A stretch of DNA of 64,000 bases from Pseudomonadales bacterium (GCA_965223975.1 OZ245031.1:2772145-2836144), one strand, 5' to 3'. Numbered from the stretch's first letter, positions 1 through 22,759 are shown. The notes: generated by a model from the sequence alone, not told the origin. Numbers and translations are program-made.

Positions 1-2
1 CA

Positions 3-74
3 GTTGCGCTGGTTGTTTATTATCACTTCAACGTCGCACAAGTGCTCGATCAAATAGCAAAAGCGGTTAATTAA
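3..74 (+). CDS. 3' end of an upstream CDS entering from the window edge (C-terminus VALVVYYHFNVAQVLDQIAKAVN*). Possibly the membrane-anchor end of a TssL/DotU-type protein, judged only from its position directly before tssM
   Basis: My own translation. The frame is open from the window edge to TAA at 72-74 and the tail is hydrophobic. The function is a positional guess only. Confidence 0.3.
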   Translation, partial: VALVVYYHFNVAQVLDQIAKAVN

Positions 75-92
75 AGGTAAATAGCAAACGCC

Positions 93-3000
93 ATGTTAAA
101 AAAGTTTCTCAAATTCCTTATGTACGCTCTGATCATAGCGCTGATATCCGGCTTGGTCATAGCTGTCTTTATTCTTCTTGGTCGCCCGGTAGAACAAGCA
201 TTTATAGTGCTTGGAGCATTGTTTGGTGTCTACTTTAGTTATCTGATTGGTCGAAAGCTTTATGTCAGATGGCGAGCAAGGAGTCAGGTTAAACGAGTCA
301 TAAATGAGGGACACCCTGATGAAGAAGATGACCTTGGTATGACTCCAAAGGAGCTTATAGGTTCCCTAAAATCTGGATGGCGTAGTGCAATTGGTAGCAT
401 CAAAAAATCTAATTTGAGATTAAAAGGTGATCCTTTATACGTTCTGCCTTGGTACATGGTTATTGGTAAGCCTCGTTCCGGTAAAAGTACTGCTTTAAAA
501 AATGCCAAACTGTTATTGCCTGATATTGATATCCCTAAACAGGGTGAGGGCTCTACCTTAAACTTAGATTGGTGGTTGTATGAGCAGGCGATTGTTTTGG
601 ATACAGCCGGTCGCTATGCGGTTCCAGATAATACCAAGCGAGATAAAAAAGAGTGGGGCACTTTGTTGTCAATGCTCTCTAGGCATAAACAAAAAGAGCC
701 GATCAATGGCGTTGTCCTAGTCATCGCAGCCAATCGTCTCCTTGAAAACACAGAAGACGAGTTGATGGAAGAGGGGCGACAAGTTCGCGCTAGTATCAAT
801 GAGTTAATGGAAAAACTGGAAGTTAAAGTTCCTGTTTATTTGATGATCACTAAGTGTGATTTGATCGAAGGCTTTAAAGATTGGTCTGATTATTTGCCTG
901 AAGAGTCGACCTTGCAAGCGATGGGGCATTTGCACGAGGGCGAATTATTAAATCTCGACGCGCACCTTGACAATATTTTCGACAGTATCGTCGATAGAAT
1001 GAAGGAACTGCGTATTTTAATGCTCGAGCGCAGCCAGTCACACAATGATACCTTGTTAACCCTTCCTTCCAAGCTAGAAGGTCTACGACGCGGTTTGCAT
1101 ATTTTTATAGGAACCGCATTAAAAGAAAATCCTTACCAAGATACCCCTCGATTTCGTGGATTGTTCCTAAGCTCAAGCCAATATATCAGTGATGACAAAG
1201 GTGAATTGGAAAGCCGCGGTTTGTTCCTACATGAGTTTTTCTCACGAGTGTTACCAGCTGATCGAGACCTGTTAGACAGTTTACCGAGTGCGGAACGGTT
1301 AAGGCGTGCTGTCAGGGAGTATGCCATCAGTATTGGTGGTGGAGTCACACTATTAACTCTGGCTGTTATCAGTATTCTTTTCGGCAGAGATATGGCTACC
1401 TTAAATGACATTGCCGACTCTTATCCCGAGATAAATATCGAAAAGCAAGACGTTAACCAGCGATTGATTGAGCTTTATACCCTGCGATCACTTATTCTCG
1501 ATCTGCAAGAGGCGCAAGACGAGTGGATTATTCCTTGGTACGGCAGGCTAGGTTATACACCTCAAGTACAACAGTTAACAGCAAGTTATAATGGCTCGGT
1601 TCAGGAGATTCTCAATGAGGCTTTGGATGAACCTTTGGCTAAAAATATGATCGATTTGCAAAGTAGCACAAGCAGTATTGCCGGAGGGTTGATTCGCCGC
1701 ATTAACTTACTTTCTACCCGATTGGACCCAGAACAAGAGGAGAGTTTAGAAGACAAGCCGCCGATCTCACCAGAGTACTTGGTGAGCGTTAACGAGGAGA
1801 TTTCTCAAGAGTCGGCTGGGTACTTCCAAGAATTGTATGTCTCATACCTGCAATGGCATAACAACGAAAGTGAACTGTTAGAAGAAAGAGCTGCTCTTCA
1901 GGGTGCTTTCGTGACGCTGATTAAACGTAATCACGGTAATTACAGCTGGATTATTGACTGGGCGAATCAACAGGGCATTCAACCGGTTGTTTTAAGTGAT
2001 TTCTGGCCAGGATCAATTAAGTTAAGAGATGCTCCCGAGATTGATGCTGCCTTTACTAAGGAAGGTCGAGAGTTCCTTAATGAATTTCTTGCAGAGTTAG
2101 AAGAAGCTAATGATGATGCCAGTCGCCTTTCAATGGTTAAGTCTGATTTCGAAGAATATTATAGGCGCGAATACGTTGAGGCGTGGGTAGCCTTTGCCGA
2201 GCGTTTTGATGAAGGTAAGTTGCAGTTGCGCAATCGTAAGGAGTGGTTGACCGCAGTGGATATAATGTCCAGCAGAGAAAACCCTTACTTTACCTTTATG
2301 GGACGCATGGTTCGTGAATTAGAACCATTAGAGCATTACGATGAGCTAGAAGGCTCGGTTATGTTTGAGTTCTTTTTAGAGGTGCAAGCATTTACAGGCG
2401 CCGACGTCGACTCGGGTGGAAGTAATAAGCAAGCCGCTAAGATGGGGCTTAAGCTCCTTGGTAAAATGGGTAAGGTTGGTAAGGCGCTTGCAAAAGCCGG
2501 CAAGCAGGGCATGAAAGCCAATAAAAAACTCAACAAGGGTAAGAAGAAAGGCGGTGTCGACTTAGATTCAGGTATTGTCGATGAGGCTTCAGCTGTTTTA
2601 GATGAGTATAAAGCAGCTTTGTCTGATGCCGCATTTAATTCCGAGGCTAAGTCTCAGTCTTACAGCTCTATCAGTACTTTGTTTGAAACGCCTGATAATC
2701 CAGGTGGTGGCAATGGACCACCCGCAGCGGCTTGGAATGCGATTAAAAAAATGCAGCAGCTGACGGGTAAACCTCGGCCTAGCACGCGCTTATTTTGGCA
2801 GCTTTACTCAGGACCGCTTAGTGTCGTTCATGATTACATGGAGCAAGAGACCAACTGTCAGCTACAGGATCGCTGGGAATCTGAAGTATTGGCCGAAGTG
2901 GTCGGTGTGTCTCAGAACAAGCTGGGAGAAGTTTTGATTGGCGAAGGTGGATTGGTGTGGAACTTTGTCGAAAATACTGCTTCGCCATTCTTAAATAAAC

Positions 3001-3551
3001 GGGTAAAAACTGGGTATGTTCCAGCGACCGCAAATAAACGCCGGATCAACTGGAGCGATGACTTTTTAGGATTCCTAAATGAAGCCGCCTCTGGCCAATA
3101 CATTGTCGGTAATGAGTTTAATGTCCAAATTAACACTCTGCCAACAGGCGTCAATATAAACGCGGCTATCTCGCCTTATGCAACCTTTTTAGAGTTGCAC
3201 TGTGCCGGTGGTATTCAAACACTGTCTAACTTTAACTACTCCGACGGCTATGACTTTAAATGGTCTTTGGAAGAGTGTGGAGACGTATCTTTACAGATTG
3301 ACATCGGACCGGTCAGCCTGCGTAAACACTACCGTGGAGTTAAGGGATTTAGTAAGTTCTTAGCGGACTTCCAAGATGGGCGACGGATCTTTACCGCAGA
3401 TGAATTTCCTAACCAAGCATCACAACTTAGCAATGAAAATGTGACGGCTATTGACGTCAACTATGAAATCTTTGGGCAAGAGCCTGTTATTCAGGTTCTC
3501 AATTCGGTGCCACTTGAGCCACCGAGAAACATAGCAGCCTGTTGGCCATAA
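93..3551 (+). CDS. tssM: T6SS membrane-complex protein TssM (IcmF family)
   Basis: 1152 aa. Two N-terminal TM helices, Walker A motif VIGKPRSGKST, a third TM near residues 415-435 (AISIGGGVTLLTLAVISILFG), then a long periplasmic IcmF-type region. Lies directly upstream of the sheath, hcp and baseplate genes. Confidence 0.9.
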   Translation: MLKKFLKFLMYALIIALISGLVIAVFILLGRPVEQAFIVLGALFGVYFSYLIGRKLYVRWRARSQVKRVINEGHPDEEDDLGMTPKELIGSLKSGWRSAIGSIKKSNLRLKGDPLYVLPWYMVIGKPRSGKSTALKNAKLLLPDIDIPKQGEGSTLNLDWWLYEQAIVLDTAGRYAVPDNTKRDKKEWGTLLSMLSRHKQKEPINGVVLVIAANRLLENTEDELMEEGRQVRASINELMEKLEVKVPVYLMITKCDLIEGFKDWSDYLPEESTLQAMGHLHEGELLNLDAHLDNIFDSIVDRMKELRILMLERSQSHNDTLLTLPSKLEGLRRGLHIFIGTALKENPYQDTPRFRGLFLSSSQYISDDKGELESRGLFLHEFFSRVLPADRDLLDSLPSAERLRRAVREYAISIGGGVTLLTLAVISILFGRDMATLNDIADSYPEINIEKQDVNQRLIELYTLRSLILDLQEAQDEWIIPWYGRLGYTPQVQQLTASYNGSVQEILNEALDEPLAKNMIDLQSSTSSIAGGLIRRINLLSTRLDPEQEESLEDKPPISPEYLVSVNEEISQESAGYFQELYVSYLQWHNNESELLEERAALQGAFVTLIKRNHGNYSWIIDWANQQGIQPVVLSDFWPGSIKLRDAPEIDAAFTKEGREFLNEFLAELEEANDDASRLSMVKSDFEEYYRREYVEAWVAFAERFDEGKLQLRNRKEWLTAVDIMSSRENPYFTFMGRMVRELEPLEHYDELEGSVMFEFFLEVQAFTGADVDSGGSNKQAAKMGLKLLGKMGKVGKALAKAGKQGMKANKKLNKGKKKGGVDLDSGIVDEASAVLDEYKAALSDAAFNSEAKSQSYSSISTLFETPDNPGGGNGPPAAAWNAIKKMQQLTGKPRPSTRLFWQLYSGPLSVVHDYMEQETNCQLQDRWESEVLAEVVGVSQNKLGEVLIGEGGLVWNFVENTASPFLNKRVKTGYVPATANKRRINWSDDFLGFLNEAASGQYIVGNEFNVQINTLPTGVNINAAISPYATFLELHCAGGIQTLSNFNYSDGYDFKWSLEECGDVSLQIDIGPVSLRKHYRGVKGFSKFLADFQDGRRIFTADEFPNQASQLSNENVTAIDVNYEIFGQEPVIQVLNSVPLEPPRNIAACWP

Positions 3552-3578
3552 GAGCGGTAGTTTTTAAGAGGAAATATT

Positions 3579-5354
3579 GTGGCAGATGATGTTCAACAAT
3601 TAGAAAGAGTTCGAATGATCTACAATTCGAGCGGCCCAAATGGGGACGAAGAGGTAGAATTACCTTTTCGTATCCTTGTGTTGGGCGATTTTACGAGCAA
3701 TGAGGCCTCAGAATACCTAGACCAACAGATGCCAGAAAACATTACCGAGGGTAACTTTAATTCGGTAATGAGAAAGCTTTCACCAGAATTGAACTTACAA
3801 GTTGATAACAAGCTATCGGAAAGTTCTGATCAGCCCTTCGTTTGCGAATTTGCGTTTCATTCCCTGAACGATTTCAGCCCCGAATATTTCATTAAACAGT
3901 CACCTGAGCTGCGTATCCTATGTGAACTTCGTCAGCAACTGATTGATATACGAGCTGATAACTCAGAGGTGTCATTAGATCGTTTCTTTGGTGGCGAAGT
4001 GGGTGGCTCTGTAGCCAGTGAGTTTTTGCTCAGCATGGGCATTAACGAAGGTGAAACAATTGACGAAGTGCTGCTCGATTCAAGTACCACTGAGCTAGAC
4101 GAATGTTTAAGCCGTCAGGTGGACGCTATTCTTCATCATCCGAAATTTCAAGCACTCGAATCAGCGTGGAGAAGTTTGCACTTTTTGGTATCTAGAGTGA
4201 ACTTCGAAGAAAATATTTTGGTAGAAATTTTAAATATCTCAAAGCAAGGCTTAGCCGAAAACTTTGAAGACGTTCCCGAAACTATTCAATCTGAGCTTTA
4301 TAAGATTATTTACAGTGAAGAATTTGGTCAATTTGGAGGTCGCCCTTATAGTTGTATGGTGGCCAATTATATTTTCTCACCGTCTGCTCCCGATATTTGG
4401 CTGCTCCAACAAATAGCGAGTGTCGCGGCCATGTCTCATTCGCCTTTTCTAGCGGCTGCTGGCCCTGAGTTTTTTGATATCGACAGTTTTTCTGGGCTCG
4501 CACGCTTACGCGATTTATCAGCAAACTTTGAGCAGCCTCGATTTGCTAAATGGAATAGCTTCCGAGAGAGTGAAGATGCACGTTACGTTTCCTTGTCTTT
4601 GCCAGGCTTTAAGCTTAGGAGTGATTATGGAAGCGATGGTAATCGAATCGGTGTCTTTGACTACCAAGAAAGAACATCCAAGAAAACCAAAGGTCTTTGG
4701 GGAAACGCGGCATTTGCATTCTGTTCTCGGCTAGTTGATAGCTTTGCTAAAACCCGCTGGTGCGTAAATGTGGTGGGTAAAGAGTATGGCAAGGTCGAAG
4801 GGCTACATATGTCCGAAGGTGGTGGCACAGCCACCTCAGATCGAAAAATTCCGACAGAGATATTAATTTCTGACAAGCGCGAAACGGAATTGGTTCGTTG
4901 GGGCTTTGTGCCTCTAACGGTCCATAAAGGCGATGATAGCGCGGCTTTTTACTCAGCGAACTCTGTTCAAGCTATTAAAGAGTTTCCAGATACGCCAGCT
5001 GGAAAGCAGTCTGCTATGAATCACCATTTGGGGTCGCAACTATCCTATTTATTTATTATTTCCAGATTGTCTCATTACATAAAAATGATGCAGAGAGAGC
5101 ATATAGGGTCTTGGAAAAATCGACATGACATCGAGCGTGAGTTGAGCGATTGGATTCGTCAGTATGTTGCAGACATGGATAACCCGACAGCGGGTGTTAG
5201 AGCACGTAGACCTTTAAGACATGCCAAAATTGCTGTTGAAGAGATAGAGGGTAAGGCAGGTTGGTACTTGATCGCCATGGCCGTTACGCCACACCTTAAG
5301 TACATGGGTTCTTACTTTACCTTAAAAGAAACTGGAAAGTTGGACAAAAATTAA
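3579..5354 (+). CDS. tssBC: T6SS contractile sheath protein, an apparent single-chain TssB-TssC fusion
   Basis: 591 aa, GTG start preceded by AAGAGG. Residues 1-125 follow the TssB/VipA pattern (ERVRMIYNSSGPNGDEEVELPFRILVLGDFTS; NFNSVMRKL; FHSLNDFSPEYFIKQSPELRILCELRQQL). Residues ~175-591 follow the TssC/VipB pattern (QVDAILHHPKFQALESAWRSLHFLV, then about 400 aa). The ORF is uninterrupted. Confidence 0.85.
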   Translation: MADDVQQLERVRMIYNSSGPNGDEEVELPFRILVLGDFTSNEASEYLDQQMPENITEGNFNSVMRKLSPELNLQVDNKLSESSDQPFVCEFAFHSLNDFSPEYFIKQSPELRILCELRQQLIDIRADNSEVSLDRFFGGEVGGSVASEFLLSMGINEGETIDEVLLDSSTTELDECLSRQVDAILHHPKFQALESAWRSLHFLVSRVNFEENILVEILNISKQGLAENFEDVPETIQSELYKIIYSEEFGQFGGRPYSCMVANYIFSPSAPDIWLLQQIASVAAMSHSPFLAAAGPEFFDIDSFSGLARLRDLSANFEQPRFAKWNSFRESEDARYVSLSLPGFKLRSDYGSDGNRIGVFDYQERTSKKTKGLWGNAAFAFCSRLVDSFAKTRWCVNVVGKEYGKVEGLHMSEGGGTATSDRKIPTEILISDKRETELVRWGFVPLTVHKGDDSAAFYSANSVQAIKEFPDTPAGKQSAMNHHLGSQLSYLFIISRLSHYIKMMQREHIGSWKNRHDIERELSDWIRQYVADMDNPTAGVRARRPLRHAKIAVEEIEGKAGWYLIAMAVTPHLKYMGSYFTLKETGKLDKN

Positions 5355-5367
5355 AATATGCAATGCA

Positions 5368-5408: not shown

Positions 5409-5440
5409 GTAAGGTAGCTTGCTGATTAGAGGAATAAAAT

Positions 5441-5926
5441 ATGCCAATACCCTGCCATTTAAGCATCGTCGGTGAACTTCAGGGTGATATCGAGGGTGAT
5501 TGTGAGTTTGAAGGCCGCGAGGGGACTATACTGGTTCAATCTGTCGATCATGTTGTAGAGATTCCAACCGATAGCCGTGGCGCGTCTACCGGGCGTCGTG
5601 TTCATCGCCCCTTAACGGTGACCAAAGAAATTGATTCATCGACACCGATGTTATACCAAGCCTTGTGCACAGGAGAACGTTTAACTGAAGTGACTCTAGA
5701 TTGGTATCGTATCGATGAGAGCGGCCTCGAGGAGCTTTACTACGTCGTCTATATGGAGAATGTCATTATTAATAGAGTTCGCCCCTGGATGCCCAATGCG
5801 CTTGATGGAAACAACTCTGGTATGAGGCATATGGAAGACGTTTCTTTTACCTATGAAAAGATCCGTTGGACTTGGGAGCTTGACGGTATTGAGTATGAAG
5901 ATGCTTGGGGAGAGATGTTCGAGTAA
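5441..5926 (+). CDS. hcp: T6SS inner tube protein Hcp (TssD)
   Basis: 161 aa. Hcp-family pattern (HRPLTVTKEIDSSTPMLYQALCTGERLTEVTLDWYR) and typical size. Good RBS. Positioned between the sheath gene and tssE. Confidence 0.9.
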   Translation: MPIPCHLSIVGELQGDIEGDCEFEGREGTILVQSVDHVVEIPTDSRGASTGRRVHRPLTVTKEIDSSTPMLYQALCTGERLTEVTLDWYRIDESGLEELYYVVYMENVIINRVRPWMPNALDGNNSGMRHMEDVSFTYEKIRWTWELDGIEYEDAWGEMFE

Positions 5927-5931
5927 GCCTT

Positions 5932-6354: not shown

Positions 6355-6370
6355 AGGGGTGGGGCACTGA

Positions 6371-9072: not shown

Positions 9073-9102
9073 ATATAGAATCAGGCTATTTGGGTTAATC
9101 TT

Positions 9103-12039
9103 ATGAGTTATTTAGAAACTGCTAATTCCGCTAAATTCAGTTTGATTATTGAAGGGGTTTCAGAAACGCTCGGCTTGATCAGTTTTACTGGGCAAACAGC
9201 CATATCTTCCCTCTATTATTTTGATTTAATGTTGGTCAGCGACAACGAGGATTTAGAAGATCTCCCTGGATTATTTACCAGTAACGTCAGCATGATCTTT
9301 CACAAGGCGGAGGCTGATAAAGAGCACGAAGTTCACGGTGTGTTTTCAGAATTCGAGCAAATTAAGCAAACCCAATACGATGGTCGTAACTACACCTTAT
9401 ATAAGGCGAGAATGGTTCCTAAGCTATGGTGGCTGACTTTAAGTAAACGCAACCAGGTTTTTTTAGAAAAGTCCGTACCAGACATAATGACTGAAATTTT
9501 AGAAGACAGCGATTTAGCTTCTTCAGATTTTAACATGGCTGAGCTAGGGTCTTATGAGGACAACGATTACGTATGCCAGTTTAATGAAAGTCACTTTGAT
9601 TTTATTTCAAGATGGATGGAGCGAGAGGGCATTTATTACTATTTTGATCATGAGGCCGAAACCGAGCAGGTGATTTTTGTCGATACCTTGTCTTCACATG
9701 ACGAACCCTTTGATAAAGAGATTGCCTATAAGCCAGATCGTGACCTTAGTGATACAACCAAGAGCCGCTTTATCCAGACCTTTACTGGGCGACAAAAACA
9801 ATTGCCTCAAATGGTCTATCTCAAAGATTATAACCCCGAGCGTCCTTCACTCTACGTTGAGGCCTCAGCGACCGTAGATGAGATGGGGCGGGGTGAAGTA
9901 TATCTGTATGGTGATCACTTCGCCGATCCGGAAGAGGGTTCGCGTTTAGCGTTTATTCGAGCTGAACAAATGCTATCTGAGCAAAAGGAATTTTTTGGAG
10001 AAAGCACAGCAAGTGCGTTAGCTCCCGGATATATTTTTACTCTCGGGCGTCACTATCGAGACTCTTACAATGCTAAATACCTGGTAACTGAAGTAAGCCA
10101 TGAAGGGTCACAGGCTTCATGTATAAAGAGCGATATATTAACAGGGCTTGGACTTTCAGTAGAAGATGTACCGTATTCCAATAGTTTTAAGGCGATACCC
10201 GCCGACACCCAGTTTAGACCTAGGCAAAGCATTGAGCGGCCAAGAATTTCAGGCACATTAAATGCTAAAATTGATGCCGAAGGTGATGGTGCCATGGCCG
10301 AAGTCGATGAGTACGGGCGGTATAAAGTTAAACTACCTTTCACACAAACCGATGATATCCTAGACGGCAAGGCCTCAGCATGGCTTCGCATGATTCAACC
10401 TCACGCAGGCGAAAATCAAGGTATGCAATTTCCCTTAAGGAAAGGTACTGATGTGGTTGTGTCTTTTATAGATGGTCATCCAGATAGGCCAATTATTGCC
10501 GGCGCTGTAAATAACCCAGAAACCCCAGGGGTTGTTACTGCTGAAAACCATAATGTTGGATTTATAGCGACCGAAGACTTATTAGCTACCCGAGCCCTAG
10601 GTGGAGCACACCGTGATGTTGCTTCCAAAGGTCCTAGCTTTGACGGTGTTACTCCTTATGATGATTTTCGTCGCAATCATCAAACCAATTTTAGTGATGA
10701 CGATTGGCAGTTTCCAAAGCTCGACCCCATAGGCAAGGGCGCCGTTACACCGGGCGGTGATTACAATGCGCTTGAAGGTTTTATTGCGAATAACGCCGCT
10801 CCCGATAACGACGGTATTCCGGGCGAATATAGTGGCCAGTATCTGATTAAACGCGAATACGGTGATCAGTATTGTTGGGGAGATGGCAAAGTCTATAGCT
10901 GGGATAATCAACTGGCATTTACCTACGGTAATGATTATGAAGAAATTCACGAAATTGATGACCCTGAAACCGGTGAAGGATACAAACAACGTTTGCCACT
11001 AACCGTCGATGAGTCTGATAAGGATAGCGTTCTTAATGTAAATAATTTTGATCCAACGGGTCGTGAGGGGCATGACGGATATGATGATATTCATTACCCC
11101 GAATCCGTGTATGGAGTAGCTTATAACTCATTTAACGATGGTGAACCCTGGGAAGATGGAGGGAATGGCCTAACGGAAAAAAACTGGGGTGATAAAGTTG
11201 AATTCCATATGGGGCGTAGTTTTAATTTCAGTGGTGGTCCAGGGCCTGGCGGTTCCAATGAGGCTTACAACTATGGTAATGGCTACAGCGAGGACTTGTT
11301 AGAAAAAACCTACGGTAACTTCGCTCAACATTATGGCGATACTCGTCATGACCGAATATTTGCAGCTACTGCTCCAGTGACAATTAATGTCGGTATAGCT
11401 TCAATGTCTAAAGCAGCCGGTCATAGCTATTCCTATACACGCGGCGTTAGTTATGACGTGGTAGAGGATTTGGATGCGTATTCAGAAACCTATGGCGGTA
11501 CCAGCGAAGACTACGTTTATACTTCGATGGGTATACCCCGTTCCAAAACTGTTGAAAAGAACGATATGGGCATGACTGAAGAGACTATTTATGACGTCAC
11601 CTCAGGTATTCCTGTTTCATTTTCTACCGAATCTACCTCTGGCGGAGCTACTGCAAGCTTTAAAACCTCTATGGGTGCGGTTGCTGAGCTAGAAACTCGT
11701 CTAGCTGCAACCTCAACTACTGAAGTAAATGTCGGCGCAGTAATGAATATTGTGGCTAATGCTGGTGCATTCATGGATGTGTCGAGTACTTTAGGAGCCA
11801 TGGTAGAAGTTGGCACACATGTTGTTCACATCGAGGTGGATTCTGCACTGGGTGTAGAAATGAAATTTCCAGGTATGAAGGTGGCTCAAGACCCATTGGT
11901 TAAATTGGAGAATACCATTACAGCTATTCAAGCTGCGACTTGTACCATATCTTCTGAGTTAGCTGCGGTGGTCGCCAATGGTGTCGAAGTGACCACCACG
12001 CCGATTCAATTGAATACAGGAATGGATATCACCGTATGA
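9103..12039 (+). CDS. vgrG: T6SS spike protein VgrG (TssI) with an atypical long region after the gp5 OB-fold
   Basis: 978 aa. gp27-like N-terminal two-thirds and a gp5-like OB-fold (RYKVKLPFTQTDD...ASAWLRMIQPHAGENQGMQFPLRKGTDVVVSFIDGHPDRPIIAGAVNNPETP, ending near residue 475). Then ~330 aa rich in G/D/Y/N/E. Then ~170 aa with short beta-helix-like periodicity (EVNVGAVMNIVANAGAFMDVSSTLGAMVEVGTHVVHIEVDSALGVEM). Confidence 0.9.
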   Translation: MSYLETANSAKFSLIIEGVSETLGLISFTGQTAISSLYYFDLMLVSDNEDLEDLPGLFTSNVSMIFHKAEADKEHEVHGVFSEFEQIKQTQYDGRNYTLYKARMVPKLWWLTLSKRNQVFLEKSVPDIMTEILEDSDLASSDFNMAELGSYEDNDYVCQFNESHFDFISRWMEREGIYYYFDHEAETEQVIFVDTLSSHDEPFDKEIAYKPDRDLSDTTKSRFIQTFTGRQKQLPQMVYLKDYNPERPSLYVEASATVDEMGRGEVYLYGDHFADPEEGSRLAFIRAEQMLSEQKEFFGESTASALAPGYIFTLGRHYRDSYNAKYLVTEVSHEGSQASCIKSDILTGLGLSVEDVPYSNSFKAIPADTQFRPRQSIERPRISGTLNAKIDAEGDGAMAEVDEYGRYKVKLPFTQTDDILDGKASAWLRMIQPHAGENQGMQFPLRKGTDVVVSFIDGHPDRPIIAGAVNNPETPGVVTAENHNVGFIATEDLLATRALGGAHRDVASKGPSFDGVTPYDDFRRNHQTNFSDDDWQFPKLDPIGKGAVTPGGDYNALEGFIANNAAPDNDGIPGEYSGQYLIKREYGDQYCWGDGKVYSWDNQLAFTYGNDYEEIHEIDDPETGEGYKQRLPLTVDESDKDSVLNVNNFDPTGREGHDGYDDIHYPESVYGVAYNSFNDGEPWEDGGNGLTEKNWGDKVEFHMGRSFNFSGGPGPGGSNEAYNYGNGYSEDLLEKTYGNFAQHYGDTRHDRIFAATAPVTINVGIASMSKAAGHSYSYTRGVSYDVVEDLDAYSETYGGTSEDYVYTSMGIPRSKTVEKNDMGMTEETIYDVTSGIPVSFSTESTSGGATASFKTSMGAVAELETRLAATSTTEVNVGAVMNIVANAGAFMDVSSTLGAMVEVGTHVVHIEVDSALGVEMKFPGMKVAQDPLVKLENTITAIQAATCTISSELAAVVANGVEVTTTPIQLNTGMDITV

Positions 12040-14885
12040 TCGATGTCATCGCGCCTATGCAGATACTGCCGATGAAAACGGTGGTAGAGCGGGACAATAC
12101 CTTCCATTTAATTATGTCTGCTACGCTGGGCATTGATTTAAGTAATAACAATGCGCTGCTTTCTTTTGACTACATAAAAGATGCTTTAGAGAGCATGGAT
12201 AGGCCGCCGATGCTGGATATGGGTATGCCTAAACCACACGGTGAATTTATGGTTTCCGGTAAATTCTTTGCCCCAAACCAGCAGGCAGTAGACGCTGGTG
12301 AGGTCAAAGTATGTATCGGTGACCAGCAAAAAAGTCTCTATGTATTTGGCCCTCGCTCTTGGCAAGCTGGGTTTCCTTCGAAACCTGAACCCATCGAGTC
12401 CTTACTTCTAGATTATCAGTTCGCGATGGGCGGCGATAACTACCCAGAAAACCCAGAGGGCATGGGGTATGAGCAGGAGCAGCTGCCTCAAATTGAATAC
12501 CCTAATCAGCTAGTAGATTCGCCAAAAGCACAAGTCTCACCGGCGGGCTTAAGTGCCATCGATATTACCAACCCCCAGCGCGCACAATATCATGGAACCT
12601 ATGACGGCCAGTATTTAGAGAAATATTTCCCCGGCTATCCTGCAGATATGGATTGGCGAATGTTTATGTGTACGCCACCTGATCAATGGTCAAAGGGATT
12701 TTATAATGGTGATGAGAAATTTTCCTTACATAATATGCATCCAAACGAAGCACTTATCGAGGGCCAATTACCATCATTGAAAACACGCTGTTTTCTCCGC
12801 AGCAAGCCCGGTGTGGCGCAACAGTCTAATATTCAAGAAATCCCCATGAACCTCGATACTGTGTGGTTTTTTCCAGAAGTCAAAATTGCTTTATTGATTG
12901 CTCGGGGTGGTATTGAAATAAATGACGATGAAGGAGATGACTTCGATACCGTACTGTTTGCGTATGAACGACACGATGAGGTTCGCAGTCCTGATTATTA
13001 TAAAGAGGCGATGGACCTTCGCTTGGATACCAAGGATCGATTGCTTTATAACCTCTGCACTCATGACCTAATTCCAAGCGATCATAAGTCAGCTATGGAG
13101 ACCCTACAATTGATGGGGGAAGAATCAGCTGATAATAGTGAATTCTCGAAAAACCTAGCCCATAAAACGGAGTCCATCCAAAATGAGGTGGATGAAAAGG
13201 TAGAAAAGGCTCTTAAACAAAGCGAAGAGCAAATGGCAGCGGCAAATATCGGTGAAGAACATAAACCGGATATTCGGGCAATCCTTAAGGAACCTAAAAC
13301 CGATCCCGAAATTGAGGCATTAAATGCCAAACTAGAGAAAATATTGCCCGGTATAACTGGTAAAGATGGCAAGAGCTTGGAGTTAAAAAACCTAACCAGC
13401 GCAAAGATTGAAGAGGTCATTCAGACCAGTAAAGAATTCTCTGATAAAAAAAATGAAGAAGCTCAACAAATGATAAGGGAAGAGCTTCTTAAGATTCGTC
13501 AGGAGCTGAAAGACCAGTTGAAGATGGAATTGCCAGAGGAAAGCAAAAAATCCCTGGAGCAGGCACTTACAGTCATAGAAGGTATGCTAGAAAGTGAGCC
13601 GCCTCCTACAGAGTTGCCAAGAGTTGATTCTCAAGCTTTAATTGATCGTTTTCAGCAAGCATCTCCAGAGAGTATGCAGTACATGCAGCAAATTGCCTTG
13701 ATGCGGGCCTCGGGTGGAGATGAAAAAGCCATTTCGGTGCTCGAAAAGCAATTAAAAGATCTCGAGGACTTTAAAGAGAATGAAATGAAAACGGCGCTAA
13801 TAGAGGCCGAAAAAACCTTTAAGGATGGATATTTAAAGGGCGCTCATTATACAGCTAAAGGGCTATCTCCCCACGAAGATGACGCAACGGTGCGTGGCCA
13901 GCTGATAAAAAAAATTAGTTTGAGAGAGGATGTCAGTCAACAAGACTGGGCTTGTTTAGACTTAAGTGCTCAAGATTTAGCTGGAGTGGATTTTAGCGGT
14001 TGTTATTTGGAACAAGTTGATTTTAGCGGAGCCGACCTAAGCGGAGCAAATTTTAGCCAAGCAAACCTAGCAAGAGCTAAGCTAGAAAATGCAAATTGTA
14101 TCGGCGCCAATTTTGAGGGTGCCAATCTGGGCGCAGTATTAGGAAACGGTTGTAACTTTACAGACGCGACTCTTCACGAGGCGCAACTCAATTTAAGCGA
14201 TTTTCAGAATTCAAACTTTACGCGAGCGAAACTTGATCTGGCGTTAATCCTAGAGATTAATGTAGACGGCGCGAATTTTAGCGAGGCCCAATTAGAAAAA
14301 GTACAGTTCTTAGATATCGAATTGAATGATGTTGATTTCTCAAATGCTAATCTTGTTAGTGCAGTGTTTATTAATTGCATAATTAACCGGGTCAATTTTA
14401 GCGGAGCTAAAGCATCTAGCACTATATGGACCAATATTCCTTTTACTGATGTTAAGTTTGATGATGCTGATATTACCTCAGCGTGCTTTGCACCCTCTGA
14501 AGAAGGCAAGACTTCGATGGAGTCGGTTAGTTTAGTAAGAGCTATAATGGACAAGAGTAATTTCCAGGGGATGCCCATGCAGTCGTGTGACCTGACTGAA
14601 GCGTCAATGGAAAATGCAATAATGATGGAAGCTGATTTAAAAGGCGCAAATCTTACTGGCATTAAGGCGAAGGGCGCATCTTTTCGAAAAGCATCTTTAG
14701 AAAATGCTCTTTTAAAAAACGCCGACCTAAGGGATGGTATTCTTTCTAAAGCGAATTTGGTGGGCGCTAATTTTGTGGGCGCTAATTTGTTTAGAGCCGA
14801 TCTAATCCGATCTTCTATGAAAAACACCGATTTTCTTGCAAGTAACCTTGATGCCACCCTGATTAAAGACTGGAGGCCCTCATGA
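12036..14885 (+). CDS. DUF2169-like N-terminal domain + Glu/Lys-rich coiled-coil + pentapeptide-repeat C-terminal domain (TagAB-like T6SS accessory protein)
   Basis: 949 aa. The ATG overlaps the vgrG stop (ATGA). The first ~330 aa resemble the DUF2169 proteins found after vgrG genes. Residues ~340-620 are EK-rich and helical. From nt ~13950 there are tandem A(D/N)LxX pentapeptide repeats (DFSGADLSGANFSQANLARAKLENANCIGANFEGANLGAV...). Confidence 0.8.
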   Translation: MIDVIAPMQILPMKTVVERDNTFHLIMSATLGIDLSNNNALLSFDYIKDALESMDRPPMLDMGMPKPHGEFMVSGKFFAPNQQAVDAGEVKVCIGDQQKSLYVFGPRSWQAGFPSKPEPIESLLLDYQFAMGGDNYPENPEGMGYEQEQLPQIEYPNQLVDSPKAQVSPAGLSAIDITNPQRAQYHGTYDGQYLEKYFPGYPADMDWRMFMCTPPDQWSKGFYNGDEKFSLHNMHPNEALIEGQLPSLKTRCFLRSKPGVAQQSNIQEIPMNLDTVWFFPEVKIALLIARGGIEINDDEGDDFDTVLFAYERHDEVRSPDYYKEAMDLRLDTKDRLLYNLCTHDLIPSDHKSAMETLQLMGEESADNSEFSKNLAHKTESIQNEVDEKVEKALKQSEEQMAAANIGEEHKPDIRAILKEPKTDPEIEALNAKLEKILPGITGKDGKSLELKNLTSAKIEEVIQTSKEFSDKKNEEAQQMIREELLKIRQELKDQLKMELPEESKKSLEQALTVIEGMLESEPPPTELPRVDSQALIDRFQQASPESMQYMQQIALMRASGGDEKAISVLEKQLKDLEDFKENEMKTALIEAEKTFKDGYLKGAHYTAKGLSPHEDDATVRGQLIKKISLREDVSQQDWACLDLSAQDLAGVDFSGCYLEQVDFSGADLSGANFSQANLARAKLENANCIGANFEGANLGAVLGNGCNFTDATLHEAQLNLSDFQNSNFTRAKLDLALILEINVDGANFSEAQLEKVQFLDIELNDVDFSNANLVSAVFINCIINRVNFSGAKASSTIWTNIPFTDVKFDDADITSACFAPSEEGKTSMESVSLVRAIMDKSNFQGMPMQSCDLTEASMENAIMMEADLKGANLTGIKAKGASFRKASLENALLKNADLRDGILSKANLVGANFVGANLFRADLIRSSMKNTDFLASNLDATLIKDWRPS

Positions 14886-15934
14886 ATAGTGCTGAGCTTT
14901 CAAGGCTGGTTAAAACGGGGGAACTGTTTAGTGGCAATGACTTCTCAGGCCTGGATTGCCGAGAGGTTGATCTGTCGGGCGCGGTGTTTTCTGAGGTCAA
15001 CTTTGATCGATGCGATTTTTCAGCTGCGAATTTGGTCGACGCGACATTTAACATGTGCAGTATCAAAGGAGCTGTGTTCGATAATAGTCAGCTTAAATCG
15101 GCTAATTTTGTTGGCTGTCAGGGGGCGGAAAGCAGTTTTGATCAAGCCGACTTAGAAAAAACTAAGTTCGTTCAGTCTGAATTGATCGATGCTCGATTTT
15201 CTAATACTCGCTTGATCCAGACAACCTTTGTTGAGTCGAATCTGTGCCGTATAGATTTAAGTGATAGCTACATTGAAGCGGCTCCATTTACAGACTCAGA
15301 TCTTACCGGTATCCAATTTAAGCAAACTGAATGCGTCAAAGTGGTATTCTATCAATGTCTTTTCAAAGATATCGATTTGTCACAGTGCCGTTTTGAGCTT
15401 TGCGGCTTTATAAAATCGGATTTAAGTGGTTTGGATTTTTCTGGCTTGGATTTGTGCCAGAGTCAATTCATCGAAAGCCAGGTAAAAGCCTGCGACTTTT
15501 CAAACTGTGAATTAAAACAAGGTGGGTTTATGGCTGCCGATTTGGAGTCGTCAAACTTTGACAATACAAACCTTGAAACAGCTAACTTTTATGAGGCGAA
15601 TCTAACCAAAGCTAGTATGAAAAACGCGAACTTAACAATGGCTAGCCTGCAGAAAGCTACTATCGATTTTGCTAATTTGGCATGGGCGAAGTTAGAAAGG
15701 GCGCAAATGGAAGAAGTTAAAATAAATGTATCAATTTTTTCTAATGTTGATTTGACCTACGCTGATTTATCGCATGCAAGAATTATTGATAGTGATTTTT
15801 CTGGTGCTTCAATGAGCAATACTAATATGCATGAAGTACTAGAGGATAAAAATATTTGGGACGGCGCAACCAAGCCCTTGTCTTGGCCAACCGATGAAGA
15901 GAGAAAAAAAGCAGAAACCTGGGGTGCGAAATGA
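14882..15934 (+). CDS. Pentapeptide-repeat protein (TagB-like)
   Basis: 350 aa, almost entirely pentapeptide repeats (DLSGAVFSEVNFDRCDFSAANLVDATFNMCSIKGAVFDNSQLKSANF...). ATGA overlap with the upstream gene. Confidence 0.85.
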   Translation: MNSAELSRLVKTGELFSGNDFSGLDCREVDLSGAVFSEVNFDRCDFSAANLVDATFNMCSIKGAVFDNSQLKSANFVGCQGAESSFDQADLEKTKFVQSELIDARFSNTRLIQTTFVESNLCRIDLSDSYIEAAPFTDSDLTGIQFKQTECVKVVFYQCLFKDIDLSQCRFELCGFIKSDLSGLDFSGLDLCQSQFIESQVKACDFSNCELKQGGFMAADLESSNFDNTNLETANFYEANLTKASMKNANLTMASLQKATIDFANLAWAKLERAQMEEVKINVSIFSNVDLTYADLSHARIIDSDFSGASMSNTNMHEVLEDKNIWDGATKPLSWPTDEERKKAETWGAK

Positions 15935-16608
15935 GTATTGAGTCTGCAAAAGTAATCGCTTTGGAAAGTAAATCGCTAGAAACTACTGGCGTTAAACTCG
16001 AACAAACTAAAGTCGGTCAAACTAATAATCTAAAAGAAGTAATTATTAATTTGGAAGGTGAGGAAAAGACAGCAAAGGTATCATTCAGCTGTTTGGTTGC
16101 TCCTCAGGTAAACGATAGCGTACTGATAGCAAGCAACGAAAAAGGTGAATATTTTGTGCTTAGTATTCTCGAACGTAGTGAAAGTTCACAGGAAATGACG
16201 CTGGCATTTCCAGATACAGCGAATTTAGTAAGCGCTAGTGGGGCGATTAATTTACTTTCGACAGAGAGTATTTCTATGACTACTCAAAGTTTAAACTCAG
16301 TTGCCCATAATAGTGTTTATAAATCTGCACAGACTATTGTTGATTTTGAGGAACTGACTGCAAAGGGGAAAAGCGCCACGGTAAGTATCCCTAATATGAG
16401 GATTCTAGCCGATAATATCAGCACTGTTGCCAAACAAGCGGTTCAAAAATTTGCAAACTACGTTAGACGAACAGAATCTTTTGATAAAGTTCAGGCAGGC
16501 CAAATGAATAGGAATGTCGATGGACTTTTTTCGGTAGATACAAAATATACAGTTATGTTGAGTGATAAAGATACTAAGATCGATGCCGAACGCATCCACA
16601 TGGGCTAG
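15931..16608 (+). CDS. Hypothetical T6SS-associated protein, probably DUF3540 family (TagC-like)
   Basis: 225 aa. ATGA overlap with the upstream pentapeptide gene. Size, position between the pentapeptide and DUF4150 genes, and the pattern AKVSFSCLVAPQVNDSVLIASNEKGEYFVLSILER fit my recollection of DUF3540. Not verified. Confidence 0.6.
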   Translation: MSIESAKVIALESKSLETTGVKLEQTKVGQTNNLKEVIINLEGEEKTAKVSFSCLVAPQVNDSVLIASNEKGEYFVLSILERSESSQEMTLAFPDTANLVSASGAINLLSTESISMTTQSLNSVAHNSVYKSAQTIVDFEELTAKGKSATVSIPNMRILADNISTVAKQAVQKFANYVRRTESFDKVQAGQMNRNVDGLFSVDTKYTVMLSDKDTKIDAERIHMG

Positions 16609-16617
16609 GAGAGAACT

Positions 16618-17028
16618 ATGTTTGCCAACAGTCAATTGATGAGTTTAAACCTTGGCTTTCCCGATGTGTGTTTAACGCCCACGCCAGCAGGTCCAATCCC
16701 GGCACCCTATCCAAACATTGCAGTTGGAACGATTGCAATACCACCTACTGCATCTCTTAAGAATTTACTGACCATGATGCCTGCTCACAACATGGTCACC
16801 ACCATTCCGATCAGCAACGGTAATGAAGCGGGGTGTAGTCCAGGAGGAGTCGCCTCTGGAATGTTTATTGGGCCCGGTAGGCACTTGATGGGTAGTTTTA
16901 AGGTGATGTTTGCGGGTACGCCAGCAACTAGGGCTTTAACAGACAGCACCTTGCAAAACTCAACTAATGTTCCAGGTGCCGGTAGAAACCTATTACCCTC
17001 GCAGTTCAAGGTAATCTGTTGTCTTTAA
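16618..17028 (+). CDS. PAAR-like spike-tip protein (DUF4150 family), no toxin extension
   Basis: 136 aa. The N-terminus LGFPDVCLTPTPAGPIPAPYPNIAVGT matches the DUF4150 signature (PDVC.TP....P.PYPN). The protein ends shortly after the core domain. Confidence 0.8.
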   Translation: MFANSQLMSLNLGFPDVCLTPTPAGPIPAPYPNIAVGTIAIPPTASLKNLLTMMPAHNMVTTIPISNGNEAGCSPGGVASGMFIGPGRHLMGSFKVMFAGTPATRALTDSTLQNSTNVPGAGRNLLPSQFKVICCL

Positions 17029-17052
17029 GTTAATTTATCAAGAGAATTATTT

Positions 17053-17349
17053 ATGTCAGAGCACGCACCACAAAATGAAAAACGCAGTGTACAGGTTCAT
17101 GTTTCTCCAGAGCTAGAGTACAGCTTTCGAGACGTGGCTAATATCTTTGTCGGGCCTAAGGCAAGTGAAGTCGTCTTTGAGTTTGGTAATACCCACCTGT
17201 CTTTGCCAGGAAATATTACTATCTCGAATCGAATTGTAATGTCCTTTGCAGATGCTTGCGAATTGCAACAACGCCTAGGAAAGACCTTAGCTGAAGCACA
17301 ACAGAAGCTACAAGCTCAATTGGCAGCACAAGCGGAGCAAAATAAATAG
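17053..17349 (+). CDS. Small hypothetical protein, DUF3467-like
   Basis: 98 aa, last gene of the co-directional block. The pattern YSFRDVANIFVGPKASEVVFEFG...ISNRIVMSFADACELQQRL resembles DUF3467. The C-terminus is a Q/A-rich helix. Confidence 0.55.
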   Translation: MSEHAPQNEKRSVQVHVSPELEYSFRDVANIFVGPKASEVVFEFGNTHLSLPGNITISNRIVMSFADACELQQRLGKTLAEAQQKLQAQLAAQAEQNK

Positions 17350-22732: not shown

Positions 22733-22759
22733 ACGATATTATTTTTATAATTCTGCTAA

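Follow-up and report, generated by a model that had tools for sequence, protein, structure and literature searches.

The T6SS-5 of the Burkholderia pseudomallei group, classed as subtype i1 (PMC13577199), has one split sheath and one Hcp and carries a vgrG-tagAB-tagB-tagC-tagD block. A module of TvpAB, TvpB, TvpC and Paar1, termed Class III Tvp, was worked out in 2025-26 in the antibacterial T6SS of Serratia marcescens Db10, where Tvp proteins chaperone the VgrG-PAAR spike and form a pre-complex for it, and where VgrG1 has itself been implicated as an antibacterial membrane-depolarising effector (PMC13373197). Genes of the DUF2169 "synteny type C" account for ~37% of DUF2169 genes (PMC11883445). 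The sheath of V. cholerae is made of two polypeptides, VipA and VipB, and is recycled by ClpV. ClpV-N binds VipB at 19-LLDEIM-24 (PMC4239648).

Organisation of the T6SS cluster

We analysed a window of 64,000 nucleotides from a Pseudomonadales bacterium (GCA_965223975.1 OZ245031.1:2772145-2836144), in which Pfam and NCBIfam matches identify positions 1-17349 as the distal two-thirds of one T6SS-i gene cluster. This cluster is part of a marine gammaproteobacterial lineage and has the order tssL'-tssM-tssBC-hcp2-tssE-F-G-vgrG-tvpAB-tvpB-tvpC-paar-DUF3467:

3..74, + strand: tssL 3' end, last 23 codons and stop (frame-3 translation compared with relative L001)
93..3551, + strand: tssM, divergent type, 1152 aa (Pfam IcmF-related_N, 1.7e-53)
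3579..5354, + strand: fused tssBC, 591 aa, GTG start (VipA 5.6e-28, VipB 2.6e-107, VipB_2 2e-39)
5441..5926, + strand: hcp2, T6SS-5-type tube protein, 161 aa (Pfam T6SS_HCP, 5.5e-34)
5905..6354, + strand: tssE (GPW_gp25, 8.6e-11)
6371..8104, + strand: tssF (Pfam T6SS_TssF, 9.8e-141)
8068..9072, + strand: tssG (Pfam T6SS_TssG, 2.1e-76)
9103..12039, + strand: vgrG, 978 aa, with a ~500-aa C-terminal extension (Phage_GPD 6.7e-68 and an OB domain)
12036..14885, + strand: tvpAB, tagAB homologue, 949 aa (DUF2169 3.7e-64, Pentapeptide 2.1e-45)
14882..15934, + strand: tvpB, tagB homologue, pentapeptide-repeat protein, 350 aa (Pentapeptide, 1.1e-45)
15931..16608, + strand: tvpC, tagC homologue, 225 aa (DUF3540, 5.2e-40)
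16618..17028, + strand: PAAR-like cap, DUF4150 / PIPY type, 136 aa (Tox-PAAR-like, 1.6e-29)
17053..17349, + strand: DUF3467 protein, 98 aa, lineage-specific last gene (orthologues in the same place in relatives)

The gene content and order given by the initial annotation are borne out by the Pfam matches, and its GC content of ~44% agrees with the computed 0.41-0.45. Two genes lie beyond its list, the DUF3467 gene at 17053-17349 and the tssL C-terminus at bases 3-74, whose translation, VALVVYYHFNVAQVLDQIAKAVN followed by a stop, corresponds to the end of TssL in relative L001 (VALVLYYHFNVTGVMENILKAVN). The true start of tssE is probably ~9 codons downstream of the listed TTG, as relatives align from ORF residue 10.

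The core machine and Burkholderia T6SS-5

Using the annotated cluster of B. savannae MSMB266 as the T6SS-5 reference, we found that every component compared has a match by BLASTP, at identities of 26-62%. In neighbour-joining trees with only six outgroup clusters, TssK, TssL and TssM grouped with T6SS-5-type clusters at a bootstrap of 100/100, and TssF and TssG did so at 99-100/100. These trees place the membrane-complex and baseplate genes in one clade with Desulfobacterota and Burkholderia T6SS-5-type clusters. At 26-62% identity, the kinship with T6SS-5 is that of a common clade and not of close orthology.

TssM is of a divergent full-length type shared with T6SS-5. TIGR03348 matches only aa 37-518 of this protein, under its cut-off, and among 425 plasmid TssM matches full-length similarity was confined to B. 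savannae T6SS-5 (26% identity to TssM-5 over aa 96-1139), Burkholderia sp. THE68 and Caballeronia NK8. TssF is 35% identical to TssF-5 and 40% identical to the protein of Burkholderia sp. THE68. The vgrG-tagAB-tagB-tagC-tagD block is a further likeness, and T6SS-5 has its genes in a rotated version of the order seen in Desulfobacterota relatives. In contrast to the one split sheath and single Hcp of T6SS-5, this lineage encodes a fused TssBC, alongside which relatives have a split sheath and another Hcp, of V. cholerae-like type. T6SS-5 has clpV between tssG and vgrG, whereas the window has none there and the clpV of relatives, where it is in the cluster, lies upstream. Also unlike T6SS-5, the cluster lacks virAG and has an additional DUF3467 gene, and the window VgrG is missing the C-terminal fusogenic domain of VgrG-5. 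Our literature search found no paper on this lineage, in keeping with its earlier description as a distinct, uncharacterised T6SS lineage.

A single-chain sheath protein

The VipA, VipB and VipB_2 matches all fall in a single 591-aa ORF. Its PDB alignments span VipA 7-123 and VipB (3j9g_B) 3-431, and its C-terminal part is 51% identical to VipB. An AF2 model of TssBC (pLDDT 86.8, pTM 0.89) found T6SS TssC/VipB chains as its best Foldseek matches, with TM-scores of 0.78-0.89 normalised to the target. As in VipA/VipB, the sheath fold is accompanied by the N-terminal and C-terminal strands that provide inter-subunit links in the sheath protomer, the alignments reaching VipA residue 7 and the VipB C-terminus. 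With its predicted fold intact and the terminal strands kept, the fused TssBC is predicted to be able to polymerise. This form of the protein is encoded by at least 94 clusters at 90% identity, which are spread over very divergent hosts; the ORF is intact, at 562-605 aa, in 34/34 loci, and 63 columns are invariant across 87 sequences.

In comparison to VipA/VipB, the C-terminal ~40 residues of VipA and the N-terminal ~60 residues of VipB are replaced in TssBC by a variable linker of ~35 residues. The lost VipB residues include the ClpV-binding LLDEIM helix, and the N-terminal LLDxIM segment of TssC is accordingly deleted in the TssBC alignment. We observed the motif LLD[EQ][IV]M in 24/25 upstream TssC proteins of relatives, in 0/34 of the fused proteins in the loci and in 0/94 of the fused database proteins. 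Because the ClpV-binding LLDxIM helix is missing, we read the fused TssBC sheath as ClpV-independent.

Two sheath and tube sets in relatives

The initial annotation was correct in describing a fused sheath; this description was incomplete, as relatives also encode a canonical split sheath and another Hcp just upstream of the point at which the window begins. Among gammaproteobacterial or metagenomic relatives, ~30 have sequence that reaches far enough upstream. In these a canonical tssA-tssB-tssC-(clpV)-hcp1 block lies 5' of tssJKLM (hcp1 seen in all ~30, a complete upstream tssC in 25), and all have the fused tssBC-hcp2 pair downstream of tssM. Only about a third of relatives have clpV in the cluster. 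Each sheath gene adjoins its own hcp, and duplication is limited to sheath and tube; the cluster has one copy each of tssA, J, K, L, M, E, F and G. Hcp2 is 53% identical to Hcp-5 and groups with it in the Hcp tree, apart from the Hcp1 of relatives. Given the canonical upstream block of relatives, fused TssBC and Hcp2 therefore constitute a second tail set, which is seen directly in the relatives and would extend to the source genome, the window starting at the tssL 3' end.

The two sets are co-inherited throughout the lineage, with mirrored topologies in their trees, and differ in several properties. Conservation across the lineage is 74% for the upstream TssC and 51% for the fused TssBC. The effective number of codons (ENC; lower values mean stronger bias) was 46.7 for split tssC against 50.2 for its fused counterpart (split lower in 20/24 loci), and 43.4 for hcp1 against 49.0 for hcp2 (hcp1 lower in 17/24 loci). 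The split tssB always has an ATG start and a stronger Shine-Dalgarno sequence, and GTG or TTG is the start codon of the fused gene in ~7/34 loci, the window included; the loci compared are phylogenetically non-independent, and codon bias and start codons are indirect measures. The gap between tssM and tssBC in the window is 27 bp, and we found no separate regulator or promoter for the fused set.

A Tvp module with a probable role in spike assembly

By their sequences, the post-vgrG genes are a Class III Tvp module (DUF2169 synteny type C), equivalent to TagAB/TagB/TagC/TagD. TvpAB combines a DUF2169 domain (aa 48-290) and pentapeptide repeats (~aa 640-940) in one 949-aa ORF whose start overlaps the vgrG stop at 12036-12039. 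BLASTP against B. savannae found homology for all four proteins, upholding the earlier proposal that this block has the content of the T6SS-5 tag genes. Both parts of TvpAB match TagAB-5 (32% identity in the DUF2169 part, E 1e-22), TvpB matches TagB-5 over its full length (25%, E 1e-27), TvpC matches TagC-5 (23.5%, E 1e-14), and the PAAR-like cap matches TagD-5 (41%, E 6e-22). The alignment of TvpC with TagC-5 and with the Pantoea TvpC covers the proteins from end to end, and all three have the C-terminal ERIHMG motif. As its DUF3540 match (5.2e-40) spans model positions 11-199 of 199, TvpC is a true member of the family, and the earlier label "DUF3540-like" named the right family too weakly. 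The cap has PIPAPYPN within a P.P.PYPN block conserved in 63 homologues and TagD-5, a block that we take as the published PIPY motif column, assuming direct correspondence, and no toxin domain was found in it with Pfam.

Like the Serratia Class III Tvp module, this one has the four domain architectures in the same order directly after vgrG, a single-domain PAAR-like cap with the P.P.PYPN block and a long VgrG (978 aa). Unlike it, the module accompanies a different T6SS core type, Pantoea/Serratia-type clusters being outgroups in our trees; there is no Vai1-like gene after vgrG, and a conserved DUF3467 gene is added. We rejected the module as a T6SS-5-specific mark, as a Pantoea plasmid whose T6SS core is unrelated also carries it. 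Some relatives lack the module, and in others it comes after tssG with no vgrG.

The role of the tag genes, earlier regarded as still unclear, is now that of a spike chaperone and pre-complex (PMC13373197). Carried over from Serratia at 22-45% identity, and drawing also on Vibrio work, this mechanism would have the DUF2169 domain of TvpAB, seen here together with the other domains, cover the hydrophobic PIPY patch on the PAAR-like cap. A pre-complex of the cap with TvpAB, TvpB and TvpC would form, from which a VgrG trimer would then displace TvpC to give a secretion-competent spike. The Tvp proteins would remain in the cell, as accessory factors and not effectors.

Orthologues of the terminal DUF3467 gene (53-70% identity) lie directly 3' of the PAAR-like gene on 7 contigs long enough for the whole module, and homologues occur on ~10 shorter contigs. 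The orthologues score 30-32 bits, above the gathering score, and the window copy scores 21.6 bits, under the cut-off of 25. The sequence of this protein shows neither a signal peptide nor a TM segment, and we found no conserved genes downstream of its gene among relatives.

The VgrG extension and the target of the system

The gpD and OB domains of VgrG extend to ~aa 475, and no domain was recognised beyond. Residues 484-781 are G/D/N/Y-rich and acidic, with an AF2 pLDDT of ~30 (no confident model); AF2 predicts stacked beta-strands at aa 784-929, and the extension ends in an A/V/T-rich segment. The VgrG encoded just ahead of a Class III Tvp module is expected to have an unusually long beta-prism; in the window protein, AF2 gave stacked strands for aa 784-929 only. 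The extension belongs to a rare family, with 35 clusters among 1.84 billion representatives, and is hypervariable among close relatives. Similarity to VgrG-5 stops at aa 491, and a search of the C-terminal 499 aa against VgrG-5 gave at best E 0.006, across 59 residues, so that the VgrG-5 CTD was not found. The initial annotation had called this a very different VgrG elaboration. The extension is the sole payload candidate in the cluster.

It had also been suggested that this T6SS-5-like system may target eukaryotic grazers or hosts, and not bacteria. On this view, VgrG would itself be the effector, by way of its C-terminal elaboration. The grouping of the core genes with Burkholderia T6SS-5, the PAAR-like cap without a toxin domain and the rare 500-aa VgrG extension with its A/V/T-rich end would fit this idea, as would the lack of a toxin/immunity pair, which, as earlier noted, is not visible in or directly after the cluster, where nothing is conserved past the DUF3467 gene. 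We nevertheless consider a eukaryotic target unlikely, and found no positive support for it. The VgrG-5 CTD is absent, and the Tvp module is not diagnostic of target, as it also serves the antibacterial Serratia T6SS (PMC13373197). Since Serratia VgrG1 is itself implicated as an antibacterial effector, a eukaryotic target does not follow from an evolved VgrG that lacks a toxin pair. Furthermore, effector genes can lie in other parts of the genome, the other members of the clade are free-living Desulfobacterota and marine heterotrophs, and hypervariability of the VgrG extension among close relatives is usual for antibacterial arsenals.

Possible roles of the two tails

As the best explanation overall, we lean towards a T6SS-5-related cluster with a Tvp spike module and a minor, ClpV-independent second tail set. 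Split TssB/TssC and Hcp1 would form the bulk of the tail and be recycled by ClpV, and single-chain TssBC and Hcp2, encoded beside tssE-F-G-vgrG, would form a minor ClpV-insensitive sheath/tube layer, probably the baseplate-proximal initiating layers. Extracellular contractile injection systems have several sheath and tube paralogues per cluster (Afp2/3/4 and Afp1/5; Pvc2/3/4 and Pvc1/5), with single-chain sheath subunits and with some paralogues only in baseplate-proximal layers. Multiple sheath and tube paralogues per cluster, here in relatives, and a single-chain sheath are thus points of likeness. However, the relationship is distant (Foldseek E-values 1e-4, TM-scores ~0.3) and the analogy functional only, and unlike these systems the T6SS is membrane-anchored through TssJLM, TssK and TssA.

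We read the faster evolution, weaker codon bias and weaker start codons of the fused set as signs of a minor role. Against this, it is Hcp2 rather than Hcp1 that is T6SS-5-like and holds the ancestral position among the tube proteins, as would be expected no less if the fused set were the original tail, still fully functional. The presence of clpV in the cluster in only about a third of relatives also weighs against it. The more specific proposal of a heterotypic tail, in which ClpV-invisible TssBC and Hcp2 form the baseplate-proximal layers or a persistent stub and TssB/TssC and Hcp1 the rest, is one that we offer tentatively. The same membrane complex and baseplate could instead carry two alternative tails, a ClpV-recycled TssB/TssC-Hcp1 tail or an unrecycled TssBC-Hcp2 tail that is single-shot or taken apart otherwise, and the choice might suit cargo or conditions. 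Such an arrangement would be consistent with the pairing of each sheath gene with its own, phylogenetically distinct hcp type, the restriction of duplication to sheath and tube among otherwise single-copy tss genes, the complete predicted sheath fold and terminal strands of the fused protein, its missing ClpV motif, and the co-inheritance of both sets with mirrored trees. We regard it as doubtful, because lower conservation and weaker codon bias of one set are unexpected of two sets that each build a bulk polymer with hundreds of subunits, and because the fused set has no regulator or promoter of its own, only 27 bp separating it from tssM.

Since it evolves faster and has weak start codons and a weaker codon bias, the fused TssBC could also be a non-polymerising or decaying paralogue, such as an assembly regulator or a remnant of the ancestral sheath, with Hcp2 as a minor effector-carrier Hcp; minor Hcps dedicated to effector recognition have a precedent in Bacteroidales (PMC13213661). 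This we judge highly improbable, given an ORF intact in all 34 loci and in 94 clusters over very divergent hosts, the 63 invariant columns, a confidently predicted fold and an hcp2 without a linked effector gene.

What is new here is that related marine bacteria all have two sheath/tube gene sets, one with its sheath as a single-chain fusion, an arrangement for which we found no description in the searchable literature. If the tail is indeed heterotypic, this T6SS would be the first to place different sheath and tube paralogues at different positions, as extracellular contractile injection systems do.

Gene content of the T6SS cluster and its surroundings

ORF listing and Pfam and NCBIfam scans bear out the gene order and content that the initial annotation had assigned to this T6SS cluster, from tssM to the DUF4150 PAAR-like gene. 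As the domain E-values were 1e-10 to 1e-141, chance matches are of no concern. The cluster contains the following, including a DUF3467 gene that is the last ORF of the range 1-17349 and was absent from the earlier list.

3-74, C-terminal 23 residues of TssL
93-3551, tssM
3579-5354, tssBC, a single 591-aa ORF with VipA, VipB and VipB_2 domains
5441-5926, hcp
5905-6354, tssE
6371-8104, tssF
8068-9072, tssG
9103-12039, vgrG
12036-14885, DUF2169 + pentapeptide gene
14882-15934, pentapeptide gene
15931-16608, DUF3540 gene
16618-17028, DUF4150 PAAR-like gene
17053-17349, DUF3467 gene, 98 aa

The cluster ends at 17349 and is followed by a convergent CLC channel gene; housekeeping and lipid metabolism genes make up the remainder of the window, which has a GC content of 0.41-0.45. 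An Rfam search of the window found no RNA families. Outside the cluster, we observed these additional features.

20906-23416, minus strand, sensor kinase with a 7TMR-DISM-like membrane domain, beside a divergent LuxR-type response regulator
18980-19831, 23490-24734, 25520-27019, 32929-34419 and 47532-48851, five ORFs (283-499 aa) with no Pfam match
42384-43955, 46023-47423 and 55894-57390, a WS/DGAT wax-ester synthase and two RPE65-type carotenoid oxygenases

The sensor kinase and LuxR-type regulator pair is located 3.5 kb past the cluster end and, by analogy with virAG, the regulator of T6SS-5, could regulate the T6SS. Conservation of this pair beside the cluster was not seen in relatives, where the downstream genes differ. 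Together with several beta-oxidation genes, the lipid genes form a set characteristic of marine gammaproteobacteria that degrade lipids or hydrocarbons.

The core machinery groups with Burkholderia T6SS-5 and Desulfobacterota systems

Scanning genomes with an alignment of TssM recovered 376 relatives, with a best match of 63%. The nearest 36 (43-63% identity) were almost all from marine gammaproteobacteria (Litorivivens, Marinicellulosiphila, Bermanella, Oleispira, Bacterioplanoides, Saccharospirillum and Thiotrichaceae MAGs), and the next tier, at 31-34%, was mostly from Desulfobacterota (Desulfosarcina, Geobacter, Smithella). TssM matches were present in 425 plasmid records, and were full-length only for the B. 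savannae T6SS-5, Burkholderia sp. THE68 and Caballeronia sp. NK8. Pfam and TIGRFAM models cover only the N-terminal third of the window TssM (TIGR03348, aa 37-518). The C-terminal two-thirds, which matches no Pfam model, is nevertheless well conserved among clade members, and its final 250 aa hold many invariant Cys, Trp and Pro residues; it appears to be a separate type of periplasmic domain, shared with TssM-5.

In bootstrapped neighbor-joining trees with six outgroup clusters (Vibrio, E. coli, Rahnella, Pseudomonas, Pantoea and Ralstonia), the window lineage, Desulfobacterota and the T6SS-5 type formed one clade with TssK, TssL and TssM (100/100) and, when a mosaic Desulfobacterota subgroup was excluded, with TssF and TssG (99-100/100). 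In these mosaic loci (L042, L044, L049, L052, L054, L056 and L077 of our comparison set), TssK, TssL and TssM grouped with the T6SS-5-type clade (100/100) and TssC, TssF and TssG with a Pantoea/H1-like type (100/100), split affinities that indicate recombination between a membrane-complex module and a tail/baseplate module. Rotating the Desulfobacterota order (J-K-L-M-B-C-hcp-E-F-G-clpV) gives the T6SS-5 order (B-C-hcp-E-F-G-clpV-vgrG-tagAB-B-C-D-J-K-L-M). These sequence comparisons establish the gene identities and the homology to T6SS-5; the trees and TssM matches support the earlier proposal of a distinct, uncharacterised lineage and extend its T6SS-5 link past the tag genes. T6SS-5 is placed in subtype i1 in a recent review (PMC13577199). 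We regard the window lineage as a new branch within an already known type of system.

The T6SS-5 cluster used for comparison, from Burkholderia savannae MSMB266, was found by tblastn of plasmid records with TssM; its neighbours include bopA and bopE, and its TagAB-5 and TagB-5 are so named by NCBI. This full cluster (locus L087, pMSMB0266, NZ_CP013419.1) also lies beside sicP, on a 375-kb replicon that types as conjugative (MOBP, MPF_T), and unless an assembly artefact accounts for this, a virulence-associated T6SS-5/T3SS-3 region is present on a potentially mobile element. An unannotated T6SS-5-like cluster of the same gene order, with vgrG and the tag module, was observed in the insect-gut symbionts Burkholderia sp. 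THE68 (plasmid locus L088, 930196-973795) and Caballeronia sp. NK8. The TssF of the THE68 cluster was the closest plasmid-borne match to the window TssF (40%).

Relatives of the cluster encode two sheath and tube sets

The T6SS tail is thought to be a homopolymer, built from one TssB/TssC pair and one structural Hcp and recycled by ClpV through the TssC N-terminus. We found at least 94 homologous clusters of fused TssBC proteins (44-60% identity) and inspected gene context at 40 loci. All gammaproteobacterial relatives with enough upstream DNA shared one order: tssA, tssB (~160 aa), tssC (~491 aa), (clpV), hcp1 (170-172 aa), tssJ, tssK, tssL, tssM, fused tssBC, hcp2 (~160 aa), tssE, tssF, tssG, with clpV inside the upstream block in about one third. 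In contrast, Desulfobacterota relatives have one split tssB-tssC-hcp where the window lineage has the fusion. Comparison of these gene orders shows that a predicted dual tail is conserved in the relatives and, because the window starts within tssL, the same upstream tssA-tssB-tssC-(clpV)-hcp1 block is expected in the source genome, which we infer carries it.

Two explanations were rejected. An assembly or annotation artefact would not account for a fusion that keeps its reading frame across 34 loci and 94 protein clusters, drawn from independent assemblies, and the duplication is confined to the sheath and tube genes, which rejects two adjacent complete T6SS clusters.

The two sets differ in several measured properties.

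Properties of the split (tssB/tssC, hcp1) and fused (tssBC, hcp2) sets. Lower ENC indicates stronger codon bias; ENC was compared at similar GC3.
Mean TssC identity across lineage: split 74%; fused 51%, with long branches
Mean Hcp identity within type: Hcp1 63%; Hcp2 57%
ENC of sheath gene: split 46.7; fused 50.2; split lower in 20/24 loci
ENC of hcp: hcp1 43.4; hcp2 49.0; hcp1 lower in 17/24 loci
Start codon: split tssB always ATG, Shine-Dalgarno score 4-6; fused GTG/TTG in ~7/34 loci including the window, weaker Shine-Dalgarno

Because the loci are not independent, the ENC differences are less significant than their Wilcoxon p-values (3e-4 and 2.5e-3) suggest. The two sheath clades have mirrored internal topologies. 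Hcp1 and Hcp2 of the same locus share 34-45% identity; Hcp2 clusters with Hcp-5, and Hcp1, which has a 9-aa loop insertion, clusters with V. cholerae-type Hcps.

The fused sheath protein lacks the ClpV-binding motif

The fusion junction removes a conserved TssB C-terminal segment and ~50 TssC N-terminal residues, and has a variable ~35-residue linker instead. The deleted part of TssC holds an LLD(E/Q)(I/V)M motif; its V. cholerae VipB counterpart, 19-LLDEIM-24, is the helix to which the N-domain of ClpV binds (PMC4239648). This motif was present in 24/25 upstream TssC proteins and in none of the 34 fused proteins in loci or the 94 fused database proteins; these alignments show that the putative ClpV-binding motif has been lost from fused TssBC. 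The retained parts are those ordered in the contracted-sheath structure (VipA 7-123; 3j9g_B 3-431). An AF2 model of fused TssBC was confident (pLDDT 86.8, pTM 0.89), with T6SS TssC/VipB chains as its best structural matches.

From these data, we propose that split TssB/TssC and Hcp1 would form an abundant tail that is recycled by ClpV, and that fused TssBC and Hcp2 would form a minor, ClpV-insensitive set at or near the baseplate encoded beside it. The main rival, in which the two sets build alternative complete tails on one baseplate, gains from Hcp2 being the positionally ancestral, T6SS-5-like tube protein, and we regard it as plausible but less likely. Per-region conservation, which in fused TssBC was below that of the split proteins everywhere and most so in the TssB part, does not separate the composite-tail and alternative-tail models. 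We also considered that the upstream tssB-tssC-hcp1 block was recently acquired from an i1-type system, as the grouping of Hcp1 with V. cholerae-like Hcps would suggest; however, Hcp1 also clusters with some Desulfobacterota Hcps, and TssC is too conserved to resolve the origin of this block.

Among 8 million openly searchable papers, we found nothing relevant on natural TssB-TssC fusions or double-sheath clusters, or on the T6SS of genera such as Bermanella, Oleispira and Saccharospirillum. Within that same scope, we could not find a description of a duplicated tail with a natural single-chain sheath that lacks the ClpV motif.

The spike module is of a known kind

The block after vgrG had been likened to the T6SS-5 tag genes, and this match holds for all four proteins, which we refer to as TvpAB, TvpB, TvpC and the PAAR-like protein.

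BLASTP matches of window proteins to T6SS-5 proteins
TvpAB to TagAB-5: 32% over the DUF2169 core, E 1e-22, repeat domain also matched
TvpB to TagB-5: 25%, full length, E 1e-27
TvpC to TagC-5: 23.5%, E 1e-14
PAAR-like to TagD-5: 41%, E 6e-22

The window cap protein contains PIPAPYPN inside a P.P.PYPN block that is kept in 63 homologues and in TagD-5. By domain content, the module belongs to the "Class III Tvp system" (Monlezun et al. 2026, PMC13373197), a layout also given for Pantoea, Cronobacter and Burkholderia T6SS-5 in that work, and is DUF2169 "synteny type C", which accounts for ~37% of DUF2169 genes (Sachar et al. 2025, PMC11883445). In the light of the same two studies, the view that the tag genes have no clear role is outdated. 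The same four genes are present on a Pantoea piersonii plasmid beside an unrelated T6SS core; by sequence, then, the module extends beyond T6SS-5. It is of an already known kind, and by analogy the window Tvp proteins would work as in Serratia.

In a metagenome scan anchored on TvpC, the DUF3467 gene was directly 3' of the PAAR-like gene in the closest relatives of the window (53-70% identity; 7 contigs long enough for the whole module, with homologues on ~10 shorter contigs) and absent from more distant Class III modules, and its position is thus conserved in the sub-lineage of the window only. The orthologues exceed the Pfam gathering score. The 98-aa protein, predicted to be cytosolic, has a beta-rich N-terminal part followed by a Q-rich C-terminal helix and may be an extra spike-assembly factor; as it has no signal peptide, it does not resemble an exported (periplasmic) immunity protein. 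Genes past DUF3467 were unrelated between contigs (ShlB, hydrolase, nuclease, protease), and no conserved effector/immunity pair followed the cluster across the contigs compared.

The spike end was modular among relatives (L015, L016, L018-L020, L023, L024 and L026, from Bermanella, Bacterioplanoides and a Colwellia MAG; L010, L013, L022, L027, L032, L038 and L085). One sub-clade has tvpAB-tvpB-tvpC-paar straight after tssG with no intervening vgrG, and the cluster stops at tssG in Oleispira, Saccharospirillum and L085. Metagenomic contigs L105 (11573-19265), L132 and L151 carry tandem arrays of two or three full vgrG-tvpAB-tvpB-tvpC-paar modules, an arrangement suggestive of alternative spikes that can be exchanged, each served by a chaperone set of its own.

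Similarity of the window VgrG to other VgrGs, including VgrG-5, ends near residue 490, and the remaining 500 residues did not match the VgrG-5 C-terminal domain significantly. This extension is alignable with few relatives only, and close relatives bear different C-terminal extensions. An exhaustive HMMER search of 1.84 billion representatives showed the extension family to be rare, with 35 clusters (E ≤ 1e-3) and with matches nearly all in the C-terminal half of 850-1050-aa proteins. In an AF2 model, aa 1-483 were well modelled, the acidic G/D/N/Y-rich aa 484-781 had no confident structure, and aa 784-929 formed stacked beta-strands; the modelled extension would fit the long beta-prisms that have been reported in Class III VgrGs.

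A eukaryote-targeting system, as proposed in the initial annotation, is possible. However, the VgrG-5 C-terminal domain is missing, the Tvp module is common to antibacterial systems, and Serratia VgrG1 likewise has no linked toxin/immunity pair, so we found no specific support for such a target. As the module is known from antibacterial systems, it says nothing on target and is by itself no evidence of eukaryote targeting, which corrects the earlier inference.

Implications

Our analyses place the medically important Burkholderia T6SS-5 inside a far wider clade of environmental bacteria, made up of marine gammaproteobacteria and Desulfobacterota, and this helps to part its ancestral features (Tvp module, TssM type) from host-specific ones (VgrG-5 C-terminal domain). 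The window lineage is a natural experiment in tail design, with two sheath/tube sets, one of which has a single-chain sheath without the ClpV handle. This dual tail can be tested in several cultured hosts (Bermanella, Bacterioplanoides pacificum, Saccharospirillum alexandrii and Marinicellulosiphila megalodicopiae). It has a bearing on how polymerisation of the sheath starts at the baseplate, why the T6SS sheath is made of two chains, and how disassembly is targeted.
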